A stretch of 64,000 bases of DNA from Nitrospirota bacterium (GTDB lineage: Bacteria; Nitrospirota; Nitrospiria; Nitrospirales; Nitrospiraceae): assembly GCA_963703955.1 (NCBI GenBank), contig CAVPGK010000013.1, positions 104,295-168,294 of the forward strand, written 5' to 3'. The notes beneath the pieces were generated by a model. That model was not told the origin of the DNA and did no database searches. It saw only the letters and a list, made by a program, of their open reading frames with translations. Below are positions 3,346-54,926 of the stretch, in pieces (the first letter of the stretch is position 1; every line of letters begins with the position of its first letter). The position numbers and the translations under genes are program-made.

Positions 3346-3795
3346 TCAACCGCACTTCTGCTGCTTCATCCATACCTCGGCACGCTTCTTAATCTCCTCG
3401 GGCGTCACATCTTCGATGTGCGTGTGAATCCACCACTGGTTACCGGCAAAATCTTTCACGCCGGCGCTGCGGTCGCCATAGAACTGATCGCTCGGTTCTC
3501 TGACGGATGCGGCTCCGGCCCGCAGCGCCCGCTTATACCAGGCATCCGCGTCCTCTACGTAGAGTGCCACTGTGATCTGGATCGGCTTCCATTGATCGGT
3601 GGCTTCGCCCACCATCACCATCGAATCACCGATTTTCACCTCGGCGTGCATGACGCTGCCGTCCGGACCCGCCAGACGATAGGTCTCCTTCGCATCGAAC
3701 GCCTGTTGCAGAAACTCGATCAGTTTCGCCGCCCCGTGAACGGTGAGGACCGGTGTCACGGTATGATAGCCATCAGGAATGGGTTTCACGGGCAT
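3346..3795 (-). CDS. VOC family (glyoxalase/bleomycin-resistance, PhnB-like) protein
   Basis: ORF track gives 3346..4014. I start it at ATG 3795, which has GAGGAGG upstream. Motifs: MPVKPIPDGYHTVTPVLTV..GDSMVMV..DQFYGDRSAGVKDFAGNQWWI. Confidence 0.85.
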   Translation of the reverse strand: MPVKPIPDGYHTVTPVLTVHGAAKLIEFLQQAFDAKETYRLAGPDGSVMHAEVKIGDSMVMVGEATDQWKPIQITVALYVEDADAWYKRALRAGAASVREPSDQFYGDRSAGVKDFAGNQWWIHTHIEDVTPEEIKKRAEVWMKQQKCG

Positions 3796-5137: not shown

Positions 5138-5665
5138 TTACGTTTCAGTTATCGCTTTCAAGTTGGCGAGGCCTGTCTCGAAGTCTTTGCCGATCATTTT
5201 GTCGCAATCCATGAAGAGGCTCATCAACTTCCCTATGTAGGGTTGAGGTCCGTGCATAGCCCATGTGACCTGGGTCGAGTCGCCTTTGGCGTCCAACTTG
5301 TATTCGACGATGTTGTGGGCATCGAATGGTTCGATCATATCCAGCGCGATCGTGATCTTGGAAGGAGGAGCGGTGTCCGTAATCGTCAAGCGTCCCTTGC
5401 CTACTTCCTTGTTGCCATCGAATTGATAGACGGCACCCTTGCCGTTTGGTGCACCGCTGATAGCTCTCTTCATCGCGGGGTCTTTCTTCTCATAGGGCGA
5501 CCAGGACTCCGACTGATGGAAATCGCTCAGGATCGCAAAGATCTTCTCCGGCGGTGCTTTGATGCTGGCCGAGCGCTGGACACGGAAGGTGTCAGGCTTG
5601 GTGGCGGCGTATGCGAGCAGCGCGGCGACCAGACCGAGGGTAATGAGAGCGAGTGTCTTGACCAT
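5138..5665 (-). CDS. SRPBCC family (polyketide cyclase/dehydrase-like) protein with signal/anchor
   Basis: 175 aa with an N-terminal hydrophobic segment, then a START-like composition (FRVQRSASIKAPPEKIFAILSDF..). Confidence 0.85.
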   Translation of the reverse strand: MVKTLALITLGLVAALLAYAATKPDTFRVQRSASIKAPPEKIFAILSDFHQSESWSPYEKKDPAMKRAISGAPNGKGAVYQFDGNKEVGKGRLTITDTAPPSKITIALDMIEPFDAHNIVEYKLDAKGDSTQVTWAMHGPQPYIGKLMSLFMDCDKMIGKDFETGLANLKAITET

Positions 5666-24488: not shown

Positions 24489-24724
24489 AGGCAAGCTCCT
24501 TTTTTTACTTCACCTCTGCTGCTTTGCGACTATAACTAGACCCACGACTTGAGTCAACTTTCACTTCGGAGCAAACGCTTTGAGCACCCAGACATTGTGC
24601 TACCATCCTGCTACCAGGCCAAGGCATCCTGATTCAGTTTGGGAACTAGTGTTGATTGTGCCAGGTGGTTCGTTGCATGCGGTCCTCTTTATGACTGACC
24701 TTCGTCCATCGCAATTCGCTATCC

Positions 24725-24739
24725 GCAAGAGCGATGCCA
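24725..24739 (-). promoter_or_regulatory. sigma-54-type -24/-12 promoter TGGCATcgctcTTGC
   Basis: GG and GC are spaced as in the RpoN consensus TGGCAC-N5-TTGCW. It lies upstream of the DUF3365-cupredoxin gene string. Confidence 0.5.
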
Positions 24740-24789
24740 ATGCTAATGAGCCGAAATGACCAGAGCGTTTCCACGTGATCGAGAGATCC

Positions 24790-24806
24790 TGTAGCCTTCT
24801 GCTACA
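24790..24806 (-). promoter_or_regulatory. palindrome TGTAGC-AGAAG-GCTACA (candidate activator site)
   Basis: Perfect 6-bp arms, 51 nt upstream of the -24 element. The 17-mer is identical to 50844..50860. Confidence 0.45.
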
Positions 24807-25253
24807 GACTTCGTTCTCCAATCTTCGGAAACAAGCCGTTCGCCACTGATACCGCAAGTCTTTGATTCAAAAGAAACGGCTGGGAAAGAATTTGGGGTGA
24901 GTGACGGGTTTCGAATTACTTAGACGTCCACCGCAACTGTCGAACATCGTGAGAATTCTGCATCGAGTGGGCAGACAAGGCAAGCCAAGCCAAGATTGGC
25001 CACCTGTCCGCAACTCCGCAACCCAGGCGCAACCTGCTTCGCGCCGGTGGGCGGTGCTCGGATTCGAGCCAGCAGATCACCCTCCTCTCGATTGCAGGGA
25101 ACGGCCTGGCAGGATGAGGCCTAACGCCCCAGGCCGTTCTCCGATCCTGCCGCAAAACGCTACGTTCGACGCCGCGATGACAACATTGAGGCCGGAAGAC
25201 CAACACTTCCCCGCAGGCACATCTGATGCAGTAAGATTCACACGAATTGGTGT

Positions 25254-30864: not shown

Positions 30865-32028
30865 CTATTTCCACATAGAACCACTGCGTTCAGAGCCGGG
30901 AATCGGTTTACTCCGCTGCGCCTCGAGTTTGGCAAATTCCTCCAGGAGTTTGCGTTGCTTGGAGGTCAAATCTGTCGGCGTTCGGACCTCCACAATGCCC
31001 ATCAGGTCGCCCTTTCCCTTTCCATCAATCCGGGGCATCCCTTTCCCTGGAATGCGAAGCGTCGTCCCCCTTTGCGTACCTGCGGGAACCGTCAGCCGGA
31101 TGGCCTCTCCGCCGAGAGCAATCAGCGGTACTTTGATGCCGAGTGCCGCATCGGGAAACGTGATCGGAACCACGGTATAGAGATCATCACCCTGGCGCTG
31201 AAAGGACGCGTGCGGTCGAATATGGGGCCGGATCATCAGATCGCCCGGCGGGCCGCCGTTGGCGTTTGGCTCACCCTGCCCGGAGAGGCGGACAACCATC
31301 CCATCATCCACGCCGGGTGGAATCTGCACCTTGAGGGTATACGGCTTGAACTCGTATCCGTTGCCACGGCACGTCTCGCATGGGGACTCGATCCACTGTC
31401 CGCGCCCCTGGCAACGCGCGCATGTCGTCAGCGTCACCATCCGCACGCCCTTGCCCGTCTGCACCTGCTGTTTCTGCCCGGTTCCTCCGCAGTCGAGACA
31501 GGTGATCGGCTTCGTACCTGGGTTCGCACCGCTGCCCCCACACGTATGGCACTTCTCAGACCGGGTGATCTGAATCTCGCGCTCCCCTCCTCGGGCCGCT
31601 TCTTCAAGCGTGAGATCAAGATCATAACGAAGGTCCACGCCTCTGACCACGCCATGGCTTGGACGAGTGCGTCGGCCAAAGAAGTCGCCGAAGATACCAG
31701 ACAGGTCGTCAAATCGCCCTCCAAAGAAATCGCCGAATTGGAAATCCCTCATGAGATCTTCGGTGTTCCAGCGCCCGCTCACCCCGGCATGGCCAGTCGC
31801 GTCATACTCGCGGCGCTTGGCGTCATCGGACAGCACCGCGTAGGCTTCGGCAATCTCCCTAAATTTCGCCGTGGCGTCAGAAGCCCTGTTCCGGTCGGGA
31901 TGGTACTTGAGCGCGAGTTGGCGGTAGGCTTGTTTGATCTGATCACGTGTGGCGGACCGGTCCACCCCCAACACTTCGTAATAGTCGCGTTTTTCTGCGG
32001 TGGTGACCACTTGCCGTCCTTTCAGCAC
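30865..32028 (-). CDS. dnaJ: molecular chaperone DnaJ (orphan, no dnaK or grpE nearby)
   Basis: J-domain [17 protein letters not shown] region, and four CxxCxGxG repeats. The start is more likely GTG at 32010 ([11 protein letters not shown]) given the promoter motif at 32050..32065. Confidence 0.9.
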
Positions 32029-32049
32029 ACGGGATACGTTTTCTTGACA

Positions 32050-32065
32050 AGCAAAGCCGCGGCCA
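32050..32065 (-). promoter_or_regulatory. sigma-54-type promoter TGGCCGcggctTTGCT
   Basis: Anchored through the antisense ORF translation (SKAAAT = agcaaagccgcggccacc). Immediately upstream of dnaJ. Confidence 0.55.
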
Positions 32066-32232
32066 CCCTTGCGACATCAGGCTGAACCGTCGATAATTGA
32101 ATATTATTGTCCTGAAAAGTATCAAGATGTAAGGTCTAGGACTCATTCTTGAGCAATGCCAGTCTCAACGAAGGCCATTATTAAGCACACCTGAAAATAG
32201 ATGTTCTTCTGGGGAGCTTGAGGAAGAGGAAT

Positions 32233-32274
32233 TCTGCTACAGAAGGCATTCTCCTCGCGGGGCAGAAGGCTACA
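32233..32274 (+). promoter_or_regulatory. two sites related to the TGTAGCAGAAGGCTACA palindrome
   Basis: TCTGCTACAGAAGGC lies at 32233..32247. GCAGAAGGCTACA at 32262..32274 is an exact 13-mer of the palindrome. They sit about 170-210 nt upstream of the dnaJ -24 element. Confidence 0.35.
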
Positions 32275-33418
32275 TCGCAAACGCCCCAACCAGACGTGAG
32301 CACGGAATCAACACGGAATCAAATGGAGGACGTTCTTCACGCCAGCAGTCGGCCGCGCTGGCATTTCTTTTGTTCGTGGCTAGTGTGGCCGGCACTCAAC
32401 TGTGCGATGATGTGACGGGGAGGACGGTGGCATTTCTGCTTGGGGGCCATCCTGCTGCGAGCCGCGATCTTTTTTATATTATTCTTGTTCAACAGAGCAT
32501 CACTGGAGGATGCCATGCGACTGTTACTGGCGGCGCGCTTGGCCATTTCTTCGCAATCGAATCGGCTGCCGATTAACACGCTCCAACAGTTTGCGTCACC
32601 CCGCGAACCGTTCCGGCTTTTTCCAGTCTGCATCGCGCAGGATGCCGAGGACAAAGCCGGGGAGCCATCATAAATGCCTGACAGTCCTTTGTCCGGGGAG
32701 AAAGTCTGGTCTCATTGCCAGCTCAGGACCAAATCTCAGCAGGACCCAGACGGTCCGCACGACGATTGACAACGAGCGGTCTCGTCAAGTCGCGATCAAG
32801 AACAGTCTACGAGCGACTCTCCTCGGCGGCCGTCAGCACGCTCCGCGTCATGATTTCTGAGACGGTTTCCTCACATCCCACCTGATCAATGTCTGCTGGG
32901 TCGAGCGGCACATGAGATTTCTGATAGACGGGTAACCTGAGGTTGGAAGGGTGTGACGCCAACTCCTCCATCGGGCAAGAGGCTCACAATTCCAGGAGTA
33001 AAGGCGATCACAGGCTGGCGTGTAATCTGCTCATGCTCCATGTCATGATTCGACGTGTACGGTTGCGCAAGATCCCGGTAATGGAGAGGCGCCTCATCCT
33101 GATCGCTATTGAATCATTCAGGCTCTTGATGGATCGAAATATTTGGACAGTCGATTCGGGTATCGAGACTCGATGTTGCATGACAAGTCGCCCTAAAAAA
33201 ATAGCGTGAGGCACACAATGGACAACTCGCCGCACCCTACAATCACGGACCATCTCTCTCGGTTAGTTCTTTTGCTGCCCTTCGTCTTATCAGCGCTTCA
33301 GCTCCATGGCTTCCACTTCTCATTGGCATGCGGGATGCTCCACTCAACTAGTCGGAGACAGGGACGCTCCGAGAGCGAGTCAGTGGATATTTGACCCTAG
33401 CGACTCAATATTCACCTG

Positions 33419-33874
33419 ATGAAAATCATGATCACCATAGAGATTGCTCTCATCGCGGTTCTGATGGCCTCCTCCTCGCTCTCCTGGGCCTTGGACGGGT
33501 CGGAAGATTCTTCCAATCTTCACCATGAGTCAACAGCCTTGGAGGATGCCGAACGGGGCCGCAGCATCTACCACAAAATCGGTGGTTGCCATTTCTGTCA
33601 CGGATATGATGGCCACCTGGACAAGCGTCCTCGCTTATCCCCCAAGCTAGCTCATGAGATTGCCCGGTTAGCCCCGCCGCCGGCCAACCTCCGAGATCCG
33701 GAAAGTCTCAAATCACAAGATGATGACCAGCGTTTTCTTTCCATCAAATTTGGACATCCGAGCACCGCGATGTTTCCCAAGAGATTTTTGAGGGACGAAG
33801 AAATTATGGACTTGATCGCGTATCTGGCGGTACTCCGTAGTCAGGCGGCTGGGCCAAGCCGCAATCGACCTTAA
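33419..33874 (+). CDS. c-type cytochrome (monohaem)
   Basis: 151 aa with a signal peptide, a CHFCH haem motif, and a distal Met candidate in PSTAMFP. Confidence 0.8.
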   Translation: MKIMITIEIALIAVLMASSSLSWALDGSEDSSNLHHESTALEDAERGRSIYHKIGGCHFCHGYDGHLDKRPRLSPKLAHEIARLAPPPANLRDPESLKSQDDDQRFLSIKFGHPSTAMFPKRFLRDEEIMDLIAYLAVLRSQAAGPSRNRP

Positions 33875-47293: not shown

Positions 47294-48379
47294 ATGCCGG
47301 CCCTCCGACGACACCAACTCGAACAATACTTGCGAAATCGGTTCGGCTCTCGTGCCGAACTGTTGAGTTATGGGATTATCGGTCAGGAAACGTCCACCTC
47401 CGCGTTGAAAGGGTATGGCTATGGCGCGCCGATCCGACTCATCTTTCGGGTGGGGCGCACGGTTCGACGCGCAGTGCTTGAAACGATGAAGCCGGGACCG
47501 TTCGGTCACGAGCACGCGGCCGACCGCGCCCAGGCGCTCCTGTGGGACTTTGACTCATACGGGCGGTTGCCCCGACACGTGGCGGCCTTGGATGTCGGCG
47601 CTTTTACCGCTCGCGGTTCCATGTTCTCGGTGGCGGGGGCTCGGGAGTTTTTTGTCTTGAACGAATGGGCAGACGGAGAAGGCTACAGTCGGGACCTTGA
47701 GCGGCTGGCCCGAACCGGTCGATTGCTGAAGCGGGATCGAGAACGGACCGATGCGCTGGCGACCTACCTGGCCCAGATCCATCGAGTCAAACGCCGCCAG
47801 CCGGATCTCTACCGCCGCCGGCTCAGGGAATTGATCGGCCACGGCGAGTGCATTATGGGGCTGACGGATAGCTATCCGGAGCGTTTCGAATTCATCACGC
47901 CGGAGCTGCTCCGTTTGATCGAAGAGGGCTGCAATCGCTGGCGCTGGCGGTTGCGAAGTCGGTCGAGCCGTCTATCGCAGGTACACGGCGACTTTCATCC
48001 ATGGAATGTTCTGTTTCGGCGAGGGGTGGATTTCAGCGTGCTGGACCGCTCGCGCGGCGAATGGGGGGAACCGGCCGACGACGTCACATCCATGACGATC
48101 AACTATCTGTTTGCCTCGCTGTGTCGCTGGGGGGACCTGCGCGGTCCGTTTGAAGTGCTCTTCCGGGAATTCTGGGACCGATACATGACAAAGAGCGGTG
48201 ATTCGGAAGTGCTGGAAACGGCCGCCCCGTTCTTCGCGTTTCGCGGTCTTGTGATCGCAAGCCCTCTCTGGTATCCCAACCTGACGCGCGGGGTGCGTCT
48301 GAGCCTCTTCCGGTTCATTCAGAACGTCCTCGCGACGGAACGATTTGAGCCCGGCGAGGTCAATCGGTACCTCACGTAA
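47294..48379 (+). CDS. phosphotransferase (APH/choline-kinase-like) family protein
   Basis: 361 aa with catalytic HGDFHPWNVLF and a downstream LDRSRGEWGEPADDV. Confidence 0.85.
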   Translation: MPALRRHQLEQYLRNRFGSRAELLSYGIIGQETSTSALKGYGYGAPIRLIFRVGRTVRRAVLETMKPGPFGHEHAADRAQALLWDFDSYGRLPRHVAALDVGAFTARGSMFSVAGAREFFVLNEWADGEGYSRDLERLARTGRLLKRDRERTDALATYLAQIHRVKRRQPDLYRRRLRELIGHGECIMGLTDSYPERFEFITPELLRLIEEGCNRWRWRLRSRSSRLSQVHGDFHPWNVLFRRGVDFSVLDRSRGEWGEPADDVTSMTINYLFASLCRWGDLRGPFEVLFREFWDRYMTKSGDSEVLETAAPFFAFRGLVIASPLWYPNLTRGVRLSLFRFIQNVLATERFEPGEVNRYLT

Positions 48380-48453
48380 GAATTTGTTGATTGACGGAGC
48401 TGGTGATTTGATGAGTTTGCAATGGGATCAATCTTTCAATCGACAAATCAATA

Positions 48454-49008
48454 ATGAGCAAATCAGCTCATGACAAGGCGTTCGCCATTTGGCTGACGGG
48501 ACTTCCGGCTTCCGGCAAGAGCACGATTGCGGCGGCGTTGCACCCTCGGCTTGAAGCGCTTGGCCTGCACGTCGAAGTGCTGGAGTCGGACGCCGTGCGT
48601 CGGATTCTCACACCCACACCGACCTACTCACACGAAGAACGCGACCTGTTTTACCGGGCGCTGGCCTTTCTATGCAGCCGGTTGGTCGCCCACGGGGTCA
48701 CGGTAATTGTCGATGCCACCGCGAACCGTCGCGTCTACAGGGATTTCGCCAGGAACCTCGTCCCGGATTTTCTCGAAGTGGCGGTTGAATGTCCGCTGGA
48801 CGTCTGCATGGCGCGCGATCGGAAGGGGACCTATCGCAAGGGACTGGCCGGCGAATCGACCACGGTGCCCGGACTTCAGGACGGTTACGAATCCCCGGTC
48901 TCTCCGGAACTGCGGATCGATAGCAGCCGCACCGAGTCTGGTCTTGCCGCTGATCGAATCCTCGCAACCCTACAGGAGCGACGGCTCATTTCAGCGGGGA
49001 GTGTATGA
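48454..49008 (+). CDS. cysC: adenylyl-sulfate kinase
   Basis: 184 aa with P-loop FAIWLTGLPASGKSTIAAAL and APS-kinase-like body. Confidence 0.8.
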   Translation: MSKSAHDKAFAIWLTGLPASGKSTIAAALHPRLEALGLHVEVLESDAVRRILTPTPTYSHEERDLFYRALAFLCSRLVAHGVTVIVDATANRRVYRDFARNLVPDFLEVAVECPLDVCMARDRKGTYRKGLAGESTTVPGLQDGYESPVSPELRIDSSRTESGLAADRILATLQERRLISAGSV

Positions 49009-49020
49009 CGTGATGGTTGG

Positions 49021-49884
49021 TCACCGGATGATCAGCACGGGGTAGGGAGCCAGGTGCAGGACCTTGTGGGACACGCTGCCCAGCAGAAACCGGGAGGCCC
49101 CTTTCCGTCCACGACTGCCGAGGAGGATCAGGTCCATCTTCATGTCTGTCGCGTGCTGAAGAATCGCGTGTACCGGAGATCCGATTGTCGTGACGGGGGT
49201 CGCCCGATACTGGACCGTAGACAGCTGAGCGGCTACATCCTCGACAAATCTGGAGGCGCTTCGCAACGCCATTTCCTTCATTGACTGGGTATCTGAGACT
49301 CGTTCAGTCCATATCGGGTGGGTGAATGGGAGCACCGTCAGGACCGTGATCTCGACCGGATTCTTGAACGGCTTCTTCTTGAAGAATCGGATGGCCGCCT
49401 CTGCATCGTCGAGACCTTCGATCGCCAGAAGCACCCGTCTCAAAGACAGGATCGGCGTGCGGATGGTCAACACGGGGCAGGGCGCGTAAGTCACTACCCG
49501 GTGGGACACGCTGCCGAAAGCGATTTCCTTGATCGGGCCAAGGCCCCGCGCTCCCATCACGATCAGATCCGCCCGTTCTTTTTCCGCGGTGGATACGATC
49601 ACTTCCGCCGGTATCCCGACTTCAAGATGCGTGGAGATGGGTCCCACCGTGTTCGGGAGAATCGAGGCGACCCGATTAACCAGGCGTTTACCGTCTTCCC
49701 GCATGCTTTGTTCAACCATTGTGGAAAGCTCGCGCACAGCCTCCGGGACGATCATGGGATAGGCGGGCTCCGGCACATCAAGCGCGTGAAGGACGATGAT
49801 CTGTTCAGACGCAGGCAGGTGAGCAAGTGCTCGGGCTGCGTTATAGGACTGTTCTGAGTCGTCCACTGGCAACAGAATGCGCAA
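49021..49884 (-). CDS. universal stress protein (tandem USP domains)
   Basis: 287 aa with two UspA repeats (..DLIVMGARGLGPIKEIAFGSVSHRV.., ..DLILLGSRGRKGASRFLLGSVSHKV..). Confidence 0.9.
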   Translation of the reverse strand: MRILLPVDDSEQSYNAARALAHLPASEQIIVLHALDVPEPAYPMIVPEAVRELSTMVEQSMREDGKRLVNRVASILPNTVGPISTHLEVGIPAEVIVSTAEKERADLIVMGARGLGPIKEIAFGSVSHRVVTYAPCPVLTIRTPILSLRRVLLAIEGLDDAEAAIRFFKKKPFKNPVEITVLTVLPFTHPIWTERVSDTQSMKEMALRSASRFVEDVAAQLSTVQYRATPVTTIGSPVHAILQHATDMKMDLILLGSRGRKGASRFLLGSVSHKVLHLAPYPVLIIR

Positions 49885-49907: not shown

Positions 49908-50603
49908 TTATAGGTCACTGCCCAGGTTCGACACATAGCGCCGGAACCATCCGCCTGCGTGGTTGGCGACCTGTTCCAGCGCTCCCGGCTCTTCGAAGAG
50001 ATGCGTCGCTCCCGGTATGACGATGAGTTGCTTGGGACCCGTAAGCAAGGCGAGGGCCTGCCGGTTCATCTCAATGACGGGAAAGTCATGGCCCCCGACG
50101 ATCAGGAGGGTGGGCGCGAGAACTTGTCGCAAGTACGGTTCGGCAAGGTCCGGTCGCCCCCCTCGCGATACCACCGCGGCGACCGTTTCTGGCTGTCGAG
50201 CAGCAGCCTGGAGAGCCGCCCCGGCACCGGTGCTTGCCCCGAAATAGCCGATGCGCAGCGCGCGTGTGCCTGGATCGTCATTCAGCCACTGAGTGGCTGC
50301 TAGTAGGCGGTCGGCCAGCAGGTCAATGTCGAACACCTTCGCGCGATCTTCAGATTCTCCTTCTCCCAACAGATCGATCATGAGAGTGGCCAGGCCGCTG
50401 TCCTGCAGGGTGCGCGCGACGAACGTATTACGAGGACTCAGCCGCCCGCTGCCGCTTCCATGCGCGAACAGCACGACACCGGTCGGACCGGGCGGGACGA
50501 CAAGGAGACCATCAAGAGTCATCCTCCCGGCTTTCACCTGAACTGGACGGGTTGTTCTCACGTCCATCGTCGGCCAACCAGATGAACTCCGTGCGTGCGC
50601 CAT
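49908..50603 (-). CDS. dienelactone hydrolase family (alpha/beta hydrolase) protein
   Basis: 231 aa. ..VLFAHGSGSGRLSPRN.. and nucleophile elbow YFGASTGAG. Confidence 0.85.
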   Translation of the reverse strand: MAHARSSSGWPTMDVRTTRPVQVKAGRMTLDGLLVVPPGPTGVVLFAHGSGSGRLSPRNTFVARTLQDSGLATLMIDLLGEGESEDRAKVFDIDLLADRLLAATQWLNDDPGTRALRIGYFGASTGAGAALQAAARQPETVAAVVSRGGRPDLAEPYLRQVLAPTLLIVGGHDFPVIEMNRQALALLTGPKQLIVIPGATHLFEEPGALEQVANHAGGWFRRYVSNLGSDL

Positions 50604-50639
50604 GCCTGATCACTCAACTAATACCTTCGGCGGGATATT

Positions 50640-50732
50640 TCAATGACATTCGGTCGGGCAGAAAACAATATACAGAAAGATCGCGATTCCGATGAGGACG
50701 GCGCCGACTATCAGCCAGGTGGTTCGTTGCAT
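50640..50732 (-). CDS. 30-aa membrane micro-ORF with Cys/His C-terminus (not in ORF track)
   Basis: Own translation: MQRTTWLIVGAVLIGIAIFLYIVFCPTECH*. AAGAGGA lies 5 nt upstream. It sits 36 nt upstream of the DLH gene. Confidence 0.35.
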   Translation of the reverse strand: MQRTTWLIVGAVLIGIAIFLYIVFCPTECH

Positions 50733-50778
50733 GCGGTCCTCTTTATAACTGACCTTCGTCCATCGCAATTCGCTATGC

Positions 50779-50793
50779 GCAAGAGCGGTGCCA
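50779..50793 (-). promoter_or_regulatory. sigma-54-type promoter TGGCACcgctcTTGC
   Basis: Perfect -24 hexamer and TTGC -12 element, 47 nt upstream of the micro-ORF ATG. Confidence 0.55.
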
Positions 50794-50843
50794 ATACTAA
50801 TCAGCCGAAATGACCAGAGGCTGTCGACGCGATGGAGAGGTCT

Positions 50844-50860
50844 TGTAGCCTTCTGCTACA
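50844..50860 (-). promoter_or_regulatory. palindrome TGTAGC-AGAAG-GCTACA between two divergent sigma-54 promoters
   Basis: It lies 51 nt from the minus-strand -24 element and 117 nt from the plus-strand one. Anchored through ORF 50797..51084 (PVAEGYK). Confidence 0.45.
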
Positions 50861-50976
50861 GGGGTGCCGGTGTGACTGTCGCAGGACTCCCCATTGGTTC
50901 CCGCTAAGTCTTCGTTCTCCATCGCGGAATGCGCGCCGTTTTCAGCCAAACTCTCATCGCTTGAAATTGCGAGAAA

Positions 50977-50991
50977 TGGCATTTCCCTTGC
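50977..50991 (+). promoter_or_regulatory. sigma-54-type promoter TGGCATttcccTTGC
   Basis: Anchored through ORF 50832..51035 (MAFPLL = atggcatttcccttgctc). It lies 35 nt upstream of the hemerythrin ATG. Confidence 0.55.
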
Positions 50992-51025
50992 TCCATGAAC
51001 CACCGAGCACAAGCAAAGGGACGTT

Positions 51026-51490
51026 ATGGGCATGATCACCGACTTTATGGCGAAGGACCATGATCGGTTGGACAACCTGTTCAATCGATTTCACGCTGCA
51101 AAGGCGACGGAAATCGAATCCGCCATACGGCTATTTTCGGAGTTCAAGCGTGGGCTGCAGCGCCACATTCTCTGGGGAGAGCACATTCTCTTCCCCGTGT
51201 TTGAGAGCCGCACCGGCATGGAGGAGCAGGGTCCTACCGCCGTCATGCGTACGGAGCATCGTCAGATCAAAGGGTTTCTCGAGCAGATCCATGACCACCT
51301 CGCGAAGAAAGAGACGGATACGGACGGTTTCGAACAGGATTTGGTCGAGACCCTTGCCAAACATAACCGGAAGGAAGAAACTGTTCTCCGTGGGTCGACC
51401 GATGCGTATCCGGACGGAAGCAGAGGCCTTGATAACTCGCATGAAGGTCGTTCCGGAGGAGGAATACCATCACTGCTGCGGATCGAGTGA
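51026..51490 (+). CDS. hemerythrin (HHE cation-binding) domain protein, C-terminus probably frameshifted
   Basis: DHDRLDNLF..H..EE..LFPVFE..EH..I and KHNRKEETVL are hemerythrin-like His/Glu motifs. After about 51386 the +1 frame (LFSVGRPMRIRTEAEALITRMKVVPEEEYHHCCG.., stop 51524) looks more like the family tail. Confidence 0.8.
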   Translation: MGMITDFMAKDHDRLDNLFNRFHAAKATEIESAIRLFSEFKRGLQRHILWGEHILFPVFESRTGMEEQGPTAVMRTEHRQIKGFLEQIHDHLAKKETDTDGFEQDLVETLAKHNRKEETVLRGSTDAYPDGSRGLDNSHEGRSGGGIPSLLRIE

Positions 51491-51534
51491 TGTTCAGCAT
51501 GATGAAGGAAAGTCCGCCGTCTGAAGGAGGAACT

Positions 51535-52053
51535 GTGGCGAACGGATTGTTTCCGAAGATTCTGGTTCCTATCGATTTCTCAGCTTGCTCGGAAGAAGCC
51601 TTCCGAGTGGCCCTGGCGCTTGCTCGGGTGTTTCTATCCGAAGTGCTGCTTCTGCACGTCGTCGATACGAAGAGCCTCGCGACCCTGAACGGGCTGGGCC
51701 TTGCTCGCCCTTCCGAGGAGGTAGCCCAAAGGAAGCGCCTGAACCACCAGGCTCGCCTGAATGCTCGTCGACTCGTCAATTCGGATGCGGCAAAGGGCGT
51801 TCCGATTCGGCGACTCGTCTTGGAAGGCTCTCCCTTCATCGAAATCGCGCGCACCGCGAGGACCGAGCAGGCCAGCTTGATCGTGATGGGCAGCTATGGG
51901 GGACAAACCGGAAACGTGGAAAAGATTTTCTTCGGGAGCACCGCCGAGAAAGTCGTACGGACCGGGGGGTGTCCTGTGCTGTGTGTTCCGTTGCCGGGCC
52001 GTCCGACCACGCACCCGACACCGGCCGCCTTGCGGCCCAAGGAGGAACGATGA
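51535..52053 (+). CDS. universal stress protein (single USP domain)
   Basis: The ORF track starts at 51487. GTG 51535 has AGGAGG 4 nt upstream and would follow the frameshift-corrected hemerythrin stop. Motifs: FPKILVPIDFS..LIVMGSYGG..FFGSTAEKVV. Confidence 0.85.
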   Translation: MANGLFPKILVPIDFSACSEEAFRVALALARVFLSEVLLLHVVDTKSLATLNGLGLARPSEEVAQRKRLNHQARLNARRLVNSDAAKGVPIRRLVLEGSPFIEIARTARTEQASLIVMGSYGGQTGNVEKIFFGSTAEKVVRTGGCPVLCVPLPGRPTTHPTPAALRPKEER

Positions 52054-52475
52054 GCCAGAGAGCATCATGGAGACGATGGAGCACTAGGTTGGTCCTAGCC
52101 GGATGCCTAACGGCAGGCGTGCTGGCACAGGCCGGCGCCCAGATTGAACAGCGCGTGGAGGTCACGATCAAAGACTTTACCTTTATCACCAAGCAGGTGC
52201 CGCTCATGCCGAATGTTCCTACCGTCATCACGATCCGAAATGACGATGAGGTACGACATGATTTCGGCTCGTCTGTTTTTCAGAACACCCTGACTCATGT
52301 GGAAAGCGACGGCGTCATTTCGTACGGACAAGGCATCGGCGGCCTGTTCCTGGATCCGAGCCGAGATGCGTCGGTGAGGTTCGTCATCGAACAACCGGGA
52401 CGATACGAATTTCGATGTTCGATTCATCCCAAGATGAGAGGGGAGCTTCTGTTACTGAACATCGGCGCCGTATAG
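52050..52475 (+). CDS. cupredoxin-like (plastocyanin/amicyanin-type) protein
   Basis: Internal ATG of ORF 51585..52475, with an ATGA overlap onto the USP stop. It has a signal peptide. Candidate copper ligands are H in DDEVRHDF and C-x2-H-x2-M in CSIHPKM. Confidence 0.8.
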   Translation: MSQRASWRRWSTRLVLAGCLTAGVLAQAGAQIEQRVEVTIKDFTFITKQVPLMPNVPTVITIRNDDEVRHDFGSSVFQNTLTHVESDGVISYGQGIGGLFLDPSRDASVRFVIEQPGRYEFRCSIHPKMRGELLLLNIGAV

Positions 52476-52488
52476 AACGGGAGTCTTC

Positions 52489-53448
52489 ATGACGGCACGG
52501 ATCAAAAAGATCTTACTGGCCACGGATTTTTCTGACTGCGCGGCGCTCGCGCAGGAGCAGGCTGTATTCCTGGCTAAGGCGGCCGGCGCCGGGTTGGATG
52601 TCGTTCATGTGATCGAGCTGTATCCCGGCTTAGACCCGGAGTATCCCGTCAATCATCTCTACCTGGAGCAGGTCCGGAAGGAAACCAGCCGACAGCTTGA
52701 GGCGGCCGTGAACCGCATGATCCAAAGCGGAGTGGTCGTCGCAGGCCATCAGGTCATCGGCATGCCAAGCCAGAAGATCAGCGAATTGGCGAAAACACTT
52801 GGTACTGACCTCATCGTCATGGGGACCCACGGGCGCACCGGATTGGATCATGTCTTGCTTGGCAGTACGGCGGAACGGGTCGTGACAAGCGCCCCGTGTC
52901 CGGTCATGACCATCCGGTCTGAGAAACGAGATGAACAGCACAGCAGTCCCATCAGTCTTCGAGGTATCCTGGCGCCAATTGATTTCTCGGATGGTTCGTT
53001 GGAGGCATTGGACTATGGGGTACGGGTCGCCAAACAGTTCGGCGCCTCGTTGACAATTCTCCATGTGCTCGAACCGGTGTCCTATGGCCTGGACTTCACC
53101 CTGTCTCGCACAGCCGAACGAGAGAGCCTCAAGGAGCGCACGGAATCGCGATTGGCCGGATTGGTTGAGATCGTGAAAGCGGAGGGTGTCCCTGCGCGTT
53201 CTGAAGTGCGTGGCGGGATCCCAAGCGATACGATTGTGCGCGCCGCTCACGATTCCTCCTGCGATCTCATCATCATGGGCACGCACGGACGGCGAGGCTT
53301 GTCTCACGTGGTCAGCGGAAGCGTGGCGGAAGCGGTGTTGCGTCGGGCTTCCTGTCCTGTGTTGATGGTCAAGAGGCAGACCCGCATCCCGCATTACCTG
53401 CAACTCTCAATCGGAGGGAAGGAAGATCATGAAAAAAGCTCAGTGTAG
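52489..53448 (+). CDS. universal stress protein (tandem USP domains)
   Basis: 319 aa with two UspA repeats (..DLIVMGTHGRTGLDHVLLGSTAERV.., ..DLIIMGTHGRRGLSHVVSGSVAEAV..). Confidence 0.9.
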   Translation: MTARIKKILLATDFSDCAALAQEQAVFLAKAAGAGLDVVHVIELYPGLDPEYPVNHLYLEQVRKETSRQLEAAVNRMIQSGVVVAGHQVIGMPSQKISELAKTLGTDLIVMGTHGRTGLDHVLLGSTAERVVTSAPCPVMTIRSEKRDEQHSSPISLRGILAPIDFSDGSLEALDYGVRVAKQFGASLTILHVLEPVSYGLDFTLSRTAERESLKERTESRLAGLVEIVKAEGVPARSEVRGGIPSDTIVRAAHDSSCDLIIMGTHGRRGLSHVVSGSVAEAVLRRASCPVLMVKRQTRIPHYLQLSIGGKEDHEKSSV

Positions 53449-53522: not shown

Positions 53523-54926
53523 TTGAGGCGGAAACGATCGTCATGGAGGAGATCCATGAAGCCCATCAGTGAGCAGACCGTCATGCCGCAGGCTAGCATT
53601 GAGCCTTCCCTCCTCGCGCTCTTGAACAGAATCAACGGGCTGGCGGCGGCGCCGGTGTTCCACGTACAGCAGGACACGGCGTTGAGTCGAGCTCTCCGTC
53701 CGTATCTCGACTACATGAAGAGAGGGATTTTGTCCCCGCTTCCCGAGGAGATCGCGCAGGCCAATCTGTTCCTCTTTGCGGATTACTTCCCGGACGACGG
53801 ACAATTGTCCCTCATCGAACAGGTTCGCGAGACGATCGACGTTCACGTGCCGGAAGATGAACGCGCCTGGCTAGACCCGCTCAAGCATTCGTATCTGGAC
53901 CTGCTGGAGATTCGAGAGATCACGGAATCTGGTGAAGGCGGCCGGCTCAAGCTGCGTTCATTGGGCAACGGCCGAGAATTTCTTGTCGGGAGAAATGGCA
54001 TGAGCCTTGACATCAAGAAAGGACACGTCCTTCTCACCCGCCTGATTCGGTTGCCCGATCGGGCGCTGCTTCCAGGGGCAGCCATCATCCTAGCAGCGGG
54101 CCATGCGAGAACCATCCTTGACCTGGCGAACCAATGGCGGCGGGAAATGGAAGCCGAGTCCGGCTCCTTTGAACTTGGGGAGTGGGAGGATTTCGCCAAA
54201 CAACATGGGTACATCCTGCTTTGGATGTATGCGCAAGCCAGGTTAGACGCGCGGCTCAAGGCTGATGCAGCCTTTGCCTATCGGACGCCCAGCGCTCATC
54301 CGTTCCTCTACGCGGTCGCGCTCTATGAACACGCTGAGTTCGACCATCTCGCGGATCGGCTGGGAAAGATCGAAGGCCTGCAGGAAGAAGTCCCTGCTCG
54401 GCTGAGGGACCATCAGCACGATCAGCGACATGTTCGTGCCTGGGCCCAGTGCGAGAGCGCGCTGATGGACCATACTTCCGAGGGGTTGGCGCGATTGATA
54501 TTGACCCCGGTCTTGTTGATGGTCGAGTGCGATTCCCCGGAACGCCTCAATGGTCTGAAGCATCAGCTAGCGTCCGCGTTCGGCTATTCCCTCCACTTCA
54601 TCGGAGAATCCCTCACCGTGCCGATTCACGACATGCCGGAGGTCGATCTCAGCCAGGAAGGCATTCCCTTACATTCCATGGTAGTTATGCAAGATGAGGA
54701 ATATCGCCTGCTCAAGGCCTTTTTGGAATCCGTCTACCTGGAATGGGCGGACCGACCGTCGCCGTCGTTACAGGGCCTCACGCCGCGCCACGCAGCAGCC
54801 GCCCTGGAGACCAAATCAAGGGTGGCATCCCTGATCGACCAATTAGAACGAGACGATCTGGTCTATCGCCGGACCGGCAGGGCAGGGTATGACTACGGTC
54901 TGCTCCGCGCCCACGTCGGTCTATAA
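53523..54926 (+). CDS. uncharacterised 467-aa protein
   Basis: Long ORF with good third-position GC. The C-terminal LEWADRPSPSLQGLTPRHAAAALETKSRVASLIDQLE resembles the helical tail (..ipaLgGkTPreA..) seen in MbcA/ParS/Xre-type and related proteins. An ATG alternative start is at 53556. Confidence 0.7.
   Translation: MRRKRSSWRRSMKPISEQTVMPQASIEPSLLALLNRINGLAAAPVFHVQQDTALSRALRPYLDYMKRGILSPLPEEIAQANLFLFADYFPDDGQLSLIEQVRETIDVHVPEDERAWLDPLKHSYLDLLEIREITESGEGGRLKLRSLGNGREFLVGRNGMSLDIKKGHVLLTRLIRLPDRALLPGAAIILAAGHARTILDLANQWRREMEAESGSFELGEWEDFAKQHGYILLWMYAQARLDARLKADAAFAYRTPSAHPFLYAVALYEHAEFDHLADRLGKIEGLQEEVPARLRDHQHDQRHVRAWAQCESALMDHTSEGLARLILTPVLLMVECDSPERLNGLKHQLASAFGYSLHFIGESLTVPIHDMPEVDLSQEGIPLHSMVVMQDEEYRLLKAFLESVYLEWADRPSPSLQGLTPRHAAAALETKSRVASLIDQLERDDLVYRRTGRAGYDYGLLRAHVGL

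Follow-up and report, generated by a model that had tools for sequence, protein, structure and literature searches.

A conserved three-part element between divergent sigma-54-type promoters in Nitrospirota, a probable enhancer

Two operons diverge from an intergenic region in a 64,000-nucleotide stretch of the genome of a Nitrospirota bacterium (positions 104,295 to 168,294 of contig CAVPGK010000013.1, assembly GCA_963703955.1), hereafter referred to as the window. The region carries a perfect palindrome, TGTAGC-N5-GCTACA, which a first-pass annotation had proposed to be an upstream activator site (UAS) for a bacterial enhancer-binding protein (bEBP). This palindrome is the 3', promoter-proximal part of a larger, asymmetric element of approximately 49 nt (50844-50892, minus strand), which is found at the same position in many related genomes and is probably an enhancer of the two sigma-54-type promoters between which it lies. 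These promoters, with the GG of the -24 element and the GC of the -12 element at the canonical spacing, are situated downstream of the element in both directions; that on the minus strand precedes genes for a small peptide, a DLH-type hydrolase and a universal stress protein (USP), while that on the plus strand precedes genes for a hemerythrin, a USP, a cupredoxin, a second USP and a conserved open reading frame (ORF) of 467 codons, ORF467. The features of the locus, in which the parts of the element are designated the G-box and the half-sites H1, H2 and H3, are as follows.

49021-49884 (-): two-domain USP (ORF), downstream of the DLH gene in the same operon
49908-50603 (-): DLH-type alpha/beta hydrolase (ORF and Pfam)
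50640..50732 (-): 30-residue membrane peptide MQRTTWLIVGAVLIGIAIFLYIVFCPTECH, first gene of the minus-strand operon
50778..50793 (-): sigma-54-type promoter TGGCACCGCTCTTGCG (TGGCAC-CGCTC-TTGCG), 50 nt downstream of the element
50844..50892 (-): element A, between the two divergent sigma-54-type promoters
50861-50844 (-): H2 (TGTAGC) and H3 (GCTACA) of element A, within CTGTAGCAGAAGGCTACA; the palindrome first reported
50875-50862 (-): variable 14-nt spacer of element A
50884-50876 (-): H1 arm of element A, CTGCGACAG
50892-50885 (-): G-box of element A, GGGGAGTC
50977..50992 (+): divergent sigma-54-type promoter TGGCATTTCCCTTGCT (TGGCAT-TTCCC-TTGCT), 0 mismatches, 92 nt from the element
51026-51490 (+): hemerythrin (ORF and Pfam)
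51487-52053 (+): USP (ORF and USP domain)
52050-52475 (+): cupredoxin (ORF and Pfam)
52489-53448 (+): two-domain USP (ORF and USP domain)
53523-54926 (+): ORF467 (467 residues), conserved ORF at the end of the plus-strand operon

The element and the promoters of the window

Read on the minus strand, element A has the form GGGGAGTC-CTGCGACAG-N14-C-TGTAGCAGAAGGCTACA (50892..50844). The consensus of the element is GGGGWGTC-CTGCTACAG-N14-CTGTRGCRRAAGGCNACA, and element A departs from the G-box and H1 portion of this by a single mismatch. Three half-sites can be recognised: H1 (GCTACA), with the G-box directly 5' of its arm; H2 (TGTRGC), 22 bp downstream of H1; and H3 (GCNACA), a further 11 bp beyond H2. 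The last two form a 17 bp dyad, TGTRGC-N5-GCNACA, and the centres of all the half-sites are separated by multiples of 11 bp. As is characteristic of a UAS, the element therefore includes a dyad in the 16-18 bp range and more than one site on the same face of the helix.

In the 64-kb window, the 17-mer containing the palindrome, TGTAGCCTTCTGCTACA, is matched with no mismatches at 50844-50860 and at 24790-24806, and two related strings, GCAGAAGGCTACA and TCTGCTACAGAAGGC, are located at 32262-32274 and 32233-32247, respectively; a direct check of the sequence thus recovered every string quoted in the first-pass annotation where it had been placed. The distances of 51 and 117 nt that it gave from the 17-mer to the two promoters are also correct if the GG of the -24 element is taken as the end point, the gaps between motif and 17-mer being 50 nt for the minus-strand promoter and 116 nt for the plus-strand promoter. 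By contrast, the assignment of the related strings to a promoter of dnaJ was mistaken: dnaJ lies at 30865..32028 on the minus strand, and the sole sigma-54-like motif near 32233-32274, TGGCATTTCTTTTGTT (32359-32374, plus strand), is oriented away from it. dnaJ has no part in the finding.

Sigma-54-type motifs, defined as TGGCAY-N5-TTGCW with up to one mismatch, number 10 in the window against 3.3 expected, a total reached by none of 100 shuffled sequences. Three of them belong to the palindrome loci, at 50793..50778 (minus), 50977-50992 (plus) and 24739..24724 (minus). Neither a sigma-70-type promoter nor a terminator was predicted in 50600-51100.

An origin of the palindrome and its related strings in chance matches is refuted. 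When up to two mismatches are allowed, the count of palindromes in the window is not significantly above expectation (3 seen against 1.1 expected), as such an origin would predict; against it stand the exact copies, where a palindrome of 12 specified bases is calculated to occur approximately 0.004 times per 64 kb, the matches to a profile of the element described below (E=2.6e-11 to 2.7e-5) and the retention of the element in other genomes. The pair of exact copies cannot be counted as independent, because 24663-24808 duplicates 50717-50862 at around 90% identity.

Conservation across genomes and copies within the window

Homologues of the DLH hydrolase sharing 66-76% identity are annotated as originating from Nitrospira, Nitrospirae or Nitrospiraceae. 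Two loci fetched through such homologues, on a 362-kb JGI contig (L018) and in the Nitrospirae metagenome-assembled genome (MAG) GCA_016207025.1 (L020), both have hemerythrin-USP-cupredoxin genes divergent from small peptide-MgtE-DLH genes, and the intervening sequences contain GGGGAGTC-CTGCTACAG-N16-TGTAGCGGAAGGCGACA in the former and GGGGAGTC-CTGCTACAG-N15-TGTAGCGTAAGGCCACA in the latter.

A metagenome collection was scanned with the pattern CTGCNACAG-N18-21-GCNNAAGGCNACA, which matched at least 120 loci; all the counts of metagenome copies that follow (51-55 or 65) refer to copies among the matches listed. Approximately half of these matches are unrelated coding or chance sequences, and the other half constitute a sharply defined Nitrospirota family. 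The distinction is apparent from features that the pattern did not specify: the GGGG prefix is exact in 54 matches, which represent non-redundant Nitrospirota copies, and TGT is present at H2 in 53 of these 54 compared with 5 of the 65 others. Likewise, a sigma-54 motif is found within 140 nt of 48 of the 54 GGGG copies but of only 8 of the 65 others.

Sequence logos of 55 copies have GGGG in 52-55 of them and the T, G and T of H2 in 55, 55 and 54, with the half-sites and G-box invariant while the outer flanks of the element vary. The central base of H3 is free (A in 20 copies, C in 10, G in 14 and T in 11), and the spacer is variable in sequence, with a length of 14 nt in 44 of 55 copies and a range of 13-15 nt. 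The element is consequently better conserved than the neighbouring non-coding DNA of the orthologous regions, as would be expected of a UAS. The palindrome is perfect in just 9 of 54 copies; its perfection is incidental, and the conserved unit is the element of about 49 nt rather than the 17-mer.

The arrangement of promoters is similarly maintained. A sigma-54 motif oriented like the element lies downstream of it in 42 of 52 copies, at distances of 50-121 nt, and a divergent motif is present in 43 of 53, with both found in 38 of 51. Of the 43 divergent promoters, 32 are 112-116 nt away and a minority 92-99 nt away, and an ORF for the small peptide follows the downstream promoter in 29 of 54 copies when detected by a regular expression. 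On one flank are genes for a USP, a cupredoxin, a USP and ORF467, with or without a hemerythrin, and on the other those for MgtE (in some cases), the DLH hydrolase and a USP. The proteins encoded on the flanks of the related loci are 45-76% identical (tblastn).

Four further loci were retrieved independently, through the DLH protein instead of a DNA pattern: three from MAGs labelled Nitrospira sp. (GCA_015903995.1, GCA_031316045.1 and GCA_019636875.1) and one from a JGI/NCBI contig whose DLH protein is ascribed by NCBI to Nitrospira sp. WS110. All four have the element in the expected place (E=6e-11 to 4e-9), including some variants that would have escaped the DNA search pattern. The conservation in orthologous intergenic regions that had been suggested as a check on the original proposal is therefore evident in dozens of Nitrospirota contigs with flanking proteins 45-76% identical, and the element is almost certainly a conserved cis-regulatory element.

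The H1 arm and the 3' part of the element together form an inverted repeat, CTGCTACAG-N14-CTGTAGCAG, with nearly perfect arms of 9 nt and a spacer held to 13-15 nt, and T-G combinations, equivalent to a wobble pair in RNA, occur in 12 copies. These properties might be those of a hairpin, either as an RNA element or as a DNA cruciform. Such a structure is very improbable, given that no pair shows a compensatory double change and the variation is one-sided, with plain mismatches affecting pairs 1, 5 and 9 in 13, 5 and 11 of 52 copies, respectively. The window copy folds with unremarkable energy (z=-0.26), no Rfam match was found in the window, and the position of the element upstream of both promoters means it would not be expected to be transcribed. 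Assignment to the class of structured RNAs was consequently rejected for want of covariation, unusual stability and an Rfam match.

Many orthologues contain additional repeated sequence around the element. Most have long, imperfect inverted repeats of short tandem units in both of the spacers between element and promoter (for example L055, L063, L066 and L123), pairing GGCTGAWGGCT... with GCCATNNGCCAT... on one side and CGTGAGG... with CCTCACG... on the other; these are absent from element A of the window. In addition, a palindrome, ACAAAGNCTTTGT, is centrally placed in many of them, halfway from the element to the divergent promoter. Both kinds of sequence could be bending or looping devices, or extra binding sites. 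Variants of the element are also found beside genes for FtsH and a membrane protein of around 158 residues (MFLLIAIWLHILAAVAWIGGMMFLS...) in L086, L139, L092 and L096, and the element may have a small number of additional target genes in certain genomes.

A profile of 59 columns, built from the metagenome copies alone and including no window sequence, identified exactly three sites when used to search the window, the next best having E=0.27.

50841-50892 (-): site A, full length, E=2.6e-11
24787-24810 (-): site B, 3' part only, E=2.7e-5
32228-32275 (+): site C, model positions 5-52, E=6.6e-6

These three sites are paralogous copies of one promoter module, and hence do not provide independent evidence of function. 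The regions occupied by the second and third copies comprise the following features.

24663..24808 (-): copy B, a 146-nt duplicate of 50717-50862 at around 90% identity
23829-24494 (-): Tll0287-like gene (Pfam), downstream of copy B
32226..32274 (+): copy C, degenerate, GAGGAATT-CTGCTACAG-N14-GCGGGGCAGAAGGCTACA
32359-32374 (+): promoter relic of copy C, TGGCATTTCTTTTGTT, with GT instead of GC in the -12 element (TTGT for TTGC)
approximately 32416-32520 (+): pseudogenised small-peptide gene of copy C, with its start codon deleted, a frameshift and its stop lost

Copy B consists of the H2-H3 dyad (24790-24806), the promoter TGGCATCGCTCTTGCG (24739..24724), the leader and a peptide remnant of 10 codons (24678..24646), the first six of which are identical to those of copy A; H1, the G-box and the divergent promoter are missing. 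Through the dyad alone, it probably places the gene for the Tll0287-like haem sensor under shared control.

Copy C retains H1 and H3 intact, and has lost H2 (CGGGGC in its place) and had its G-box decay. The homology and the indels of its peptide gene were read from an alignment to copy A and L043. A second TGGCATTTC at 32428 was considered as a promoter and rejected, as it is what is left of the R-W-H-F codons in the broken peptide gene. Owing to the loss of H2, the GT in the -12 element and the broken peptide gene, copy C is classed as a decayed pseudo-module, a dead relic.

The surroundings of copy C, from dnaJ to a cytochrome c gene, amount to 1.4 kb without a credible long ORF (32029-33419). 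The cytochrome c (33419-33874) has 32% identity (E=4e-8) to that of the element-driven operon in Nitrospira loci, and its gene is preceded by a sigma-54-like motif of its own, TGGCATGCGGGATGCT (33324-33339). No remnants of USP or DLH genes are detectable downstream of copy C, which may be the relic of an operon that lost its USP gene.

Taken in isolation, the window copies would accord with a duplicated or mobile block whose leftovers have no regulatory role, the palindrome being a passive passenger, and recent duplication had been named at the outset as an outcome that would undo the original proposal. Copies A and B are around 90% identical over 146 nt, and C is the same module in decayed form. 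Furthermore, the 19 unchanged bases at the dyad of copy B are not significant, as the probability of so many remaining intact at 10% divergence is calculated to be approximately 0.13. A Nitrospira MAG also has a tandem duplicate of the module: in GCA_015903995.1 (L141) a whole unit of USP-cupredoxin, divergent promoter, element and downstream promoter is present at both 3734-3790 and 5338-5395, indicating that duplication of the module recurs in the lineage, as in the window. What rescues the hypothesis is the conservation across genomes, in which dozens of divergent genomes each have a single copy at the orthologous place, conserved in a position-specific manner, and in which protein identities of 45-76% preclude the sampling of near-identical strains. 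A passive duplicate is thus largely refuted and scarcely credible as an explanation.

The case for a sigma-54 enhancer

On the basis of its sequence and position, the element is best read as a sigma-54 enhancer, a UAS for a bEBP, and probably functions as one. This reading follows from its position upstream of both promoters, the lack of a predicted sigma-70-type promoter or terminator nearby and the combination of a 6-N5-6 dyad with recognition units on the same helical face; furthermore, the near-constant distance to the divergent promoter suggests that both promoters use the element. The first-pass proposal is partly supported: the placing of a conserved site upstream of both -24/-12 promoters has held, whereas the 17-mer as the functional unit and the link to dnaJ have not, and no bEBP gene was found in the window or beside the related loci.

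The closest comparison is with the NtrC enhancer of glnAp2 in enteric bacteria, which consists of two 17-bp dyads of the form 6-N5-6 (TGCACC-N5-GGTGCA), around three helical turns apart and approximately 100-140 bp upstream of a -24/-12 promoter, upon which dimers assemble into an active ring. The Nitrospirota element has the same 6-N5-6 arrangement in its 17-bp H2-H3 dyad; its half-site centres are separated by 22 and 11 bp, and a further putative site is centred 33 bp from the dyad. It differs in the sequence of its half-site, TGTRGC, in having a second site composed of one recognisable half-site and the G-box, in serving two divergent promoters with one element and in being associated with stress rather than nitrogen targets.

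The boxes recognised by NorR are individually complete dyads of the form GT-N7-AC, and in some species the targets of NorR include di-iron or hemerythrin-like proteins. The norVW enhancer of Escherichia coli is reported to comprise three NorR sites, all of which are required (PMC2831303). Three recognition units likewise lie upstream of a sigma-54 promoter in Nitrospira, a number that would suit the assembly of a hexamer; these are, by contrast, three half-sites with GT-N11-AC spacing, outside any NorR or flavorubredoxin context. The UAS of NifA, TGT-N10-ACA, is also a TGT...ACA dyad upstream of -24/-12 promoters. In the Nitrospira element the spacing is one base longer (TGT-N11-ACA), the inner GC and the AAGGC spacer are conserved and nif genes are absent.

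Similar dyads have been found beyond the Nitrospirota. A scan of a 596-Gb genome collection for TGTAGC-N5-GCTACA located 35-65 nt upstream of TGGCAY-N5-TTGC yielded 17 matches, against an estimated 4 or so expected, and the association of this palindrome with sigma-54 promoters that had originally been noticed therefore recurs in other phyla. There were no Nitrospira among the matches to this combination of perfect palindrome and promoter; in most orthologues the dyad is imperfect, the -24 element reads CGGCAT or the spacer is longer. The match continues to TGTAGCG-N3-CGCTACA in many of the 17, an extension suggesting that these sites are real enhancers in other phyla. They occur, some in tandem, 50-65 nt upstream of sigma-54 promoters in L002, L009, L010, L011 and L017 (Bacillaceae), and likewise in L004, L005, L006, L007 and L016; those in Bacillaceae precede acetone-carboxylase or hydantoinase-like genes.

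The resemblance to the Nitrospira element extends to the outer half-sites TGTAGC/GCTACA, their spacing and their position relative to TGGCAC-N5-TTGC. By contrast, the sites in these unrelated organisms are symmetric (7-N3-7) and often tandem, precede other target genes and lack the G-box, H1 and AAGGC spacer. The presence of the same outer half-sites before sigma-54 promoters in unrelated bacteria fits recognition by a helix-turn-helix of the bEBP type.

Alternatively, the element might be an operator for a regulator of another kind, such as a repressor, an anti-activator, a LysR-like protein binding T-N11-A or a nucleoid protein, which would modulate both sigma-54 promoters while the activating ATPase acted from solution or bound elsewhere. 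Such a role would accommodate the lack of a linked bEBP gene in approximately 60 loci, the asymmetric G-box and the conserved AAGGC 'spacer', which are odd for a plain dyad, and the ACAAAGNCTTTGT palindrome of many orthologues, which could be a second binding site. Repressors of sigma-54 promoters, however, usually act at the -24/-12 elements, and this element is clear of these, its centre preceding one promoter by approximately 70-120 nt and the other by 115-165 nt, in the territory of enhancers. As no gene for a regulator of this kind is adjacent either, and the same type of dyad precedes sigma-54 promoters in unrelated phyla, this alternative appears unlikely.

If the element is an enhancer, an activator of the NtrC family, encoded elsewhere in the genome, would bind as dimers through its C-terminal helix-turn-helix. 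One dimer would occupy the 17-bp dyad TGTRGC-N5-GCNACA (H2 and H3), and a second would be accommodated on H1 (GCTACA) and the G-box, the latter taking the position of the partner half-site to H1. With the centres of the two sites 33 bp apart, equivalent to three helical turns, both dimers would lie on the same face of the DNA. Upon a signal, for which oxygen limitation or growth arrest would be a guess, the dimers would form an active AAA+ ring that could loop to the sigma-54 holoenzyme at either promoter and open it. The hemerythrin-USP-cupredoxin-USP-ORF467 genes on one side would thereby be induced together with the small peptide-DLH-USP genes on the other. Activator binding, the identity of the activator and the signal are all parts of this scheme that we infer.

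Several observations weigh against a bEBP-dependent enhancer. The bEBP signatures GAFTGA and Walker A (GESGTGK) are absent from the 64-kb window, from ORFs of at least 150 codons in 273 kb around 54 related copies and from the 10 kb on either side in Nitrospira loci, nor is there an RpoN box in the 64-kb window; Nitrospira genomes carry rpoN. The element is strongly asymmetric, with a G-box unlike a half-site, and given this asymmetry the two-dimer model is only a fit. There is no periodicity of 10-11 bp in the distance from the element to the downstream promoter over the range of 50-121 nt (Rayleigh R of approximately 0.2), and a search of the related loci for dyads with up to one mismatch found none beyond one per locus, such that no wider regulon is shown. 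A bEBP-like ORF in L042, the sole exception among the related copies, was rejected as a linked activator, being a truncated AAA+ fragment of 123 residues.

Gene content and physiological setting

The small peptide encoded downstream of the minus-strand promoter belongs to a group of micro-proteins of around 30 residues, each with a single transmembrane helix and, at the C-terminus, a CPxxCH motif (MTRxQWLLLGAVLLG...FFCPxxCH). Homologues are encoded at 2671-2769 of L018, 2547-2642 of L020 and many other loci, and the micro-protein has no match to a Pfam or NCBIfam family. Homologues of ORF467, with 41-55% identity, close the hemerythrin/USP operon in many related loci; ORF467 was considered as a regulator encoded within the cluster and rejected, having no sequence match in Pfam, NCBIfam or PDB.

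Beyond ORF467 in the window are genes for formate dehydrogenase subunits, a formate/nitrite transporter and a further USP, while genes for an APS kinase and an APH-like kinase adjoin the minus-strand operon (47294-49008). Genes for a hibernation factor and Lon lie close to the element cluster in related genomes. A PAS-HisKA_3 histidine kinase gene follows the DLH gene in L142 (10869-12401), L144 (10832-12355) and L145 (4376-5899), and in these Nitrospira loci it is succeeded by genes for an APS kinase, an APH-like kinase, a ribosome-hibernation factor and Lon, a neighbourhood that looks like a stress or dormancy island.

The presence of USPs, a hemerythrin and a cupredoxin, with formate dehydrogenase next door, suggests a response to growth arrest or low oxygen. 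In Nitrospira marina at low oxygen, USPs have been found among the most strongly induced proteins, with formate dehydrogenase also increased (PMC8115632). As N. marina is another species, and the induced proteins are not mapped to this cluster, the link to low oxygen is a lead only. It is tentatively conceivable, if doubtful, that a dormancy or low-oxygen programme common to the Nitrospirota has the three-part element as its master enhancer, with a single unlinked bEBP reading this unusual, asymmetric site of G-box, half-site and complete dyad and firing two promoters. In that event the programme might, just as tentatively, comprise the USPs, hemerythrin, cupredoxin and CPxxCH micro-peptide along with the neighbouring hibernation-factor, Lon and formate-dehydrogenase genes.

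To our knowledge, almost nothing is known of gene regulation in Nitrospira, and a literature search on sigma-54 regulation in the genus returned no description of a sigma-54 enhancer or of this motif. The kind of element is classical, and the gain is specific rather than conceptual. Nevertheless, the conserved motif offers a bait for identifying the activator and allows its regulon to be delimited in complete genomes, and the promoter pair could be put to use as a reporter of stress. In soils, waters and wastewater plants, nitrite is oxidised mainly by Nitrospira. Were the element indeed the enhancer of a dormancy or low-oxygen programme, the motif would offer a way to trace the sensor of oxygen or stress in these organisms, which are difficult to grow in culture, and would help to predict when nitrite oxidisers shut down.

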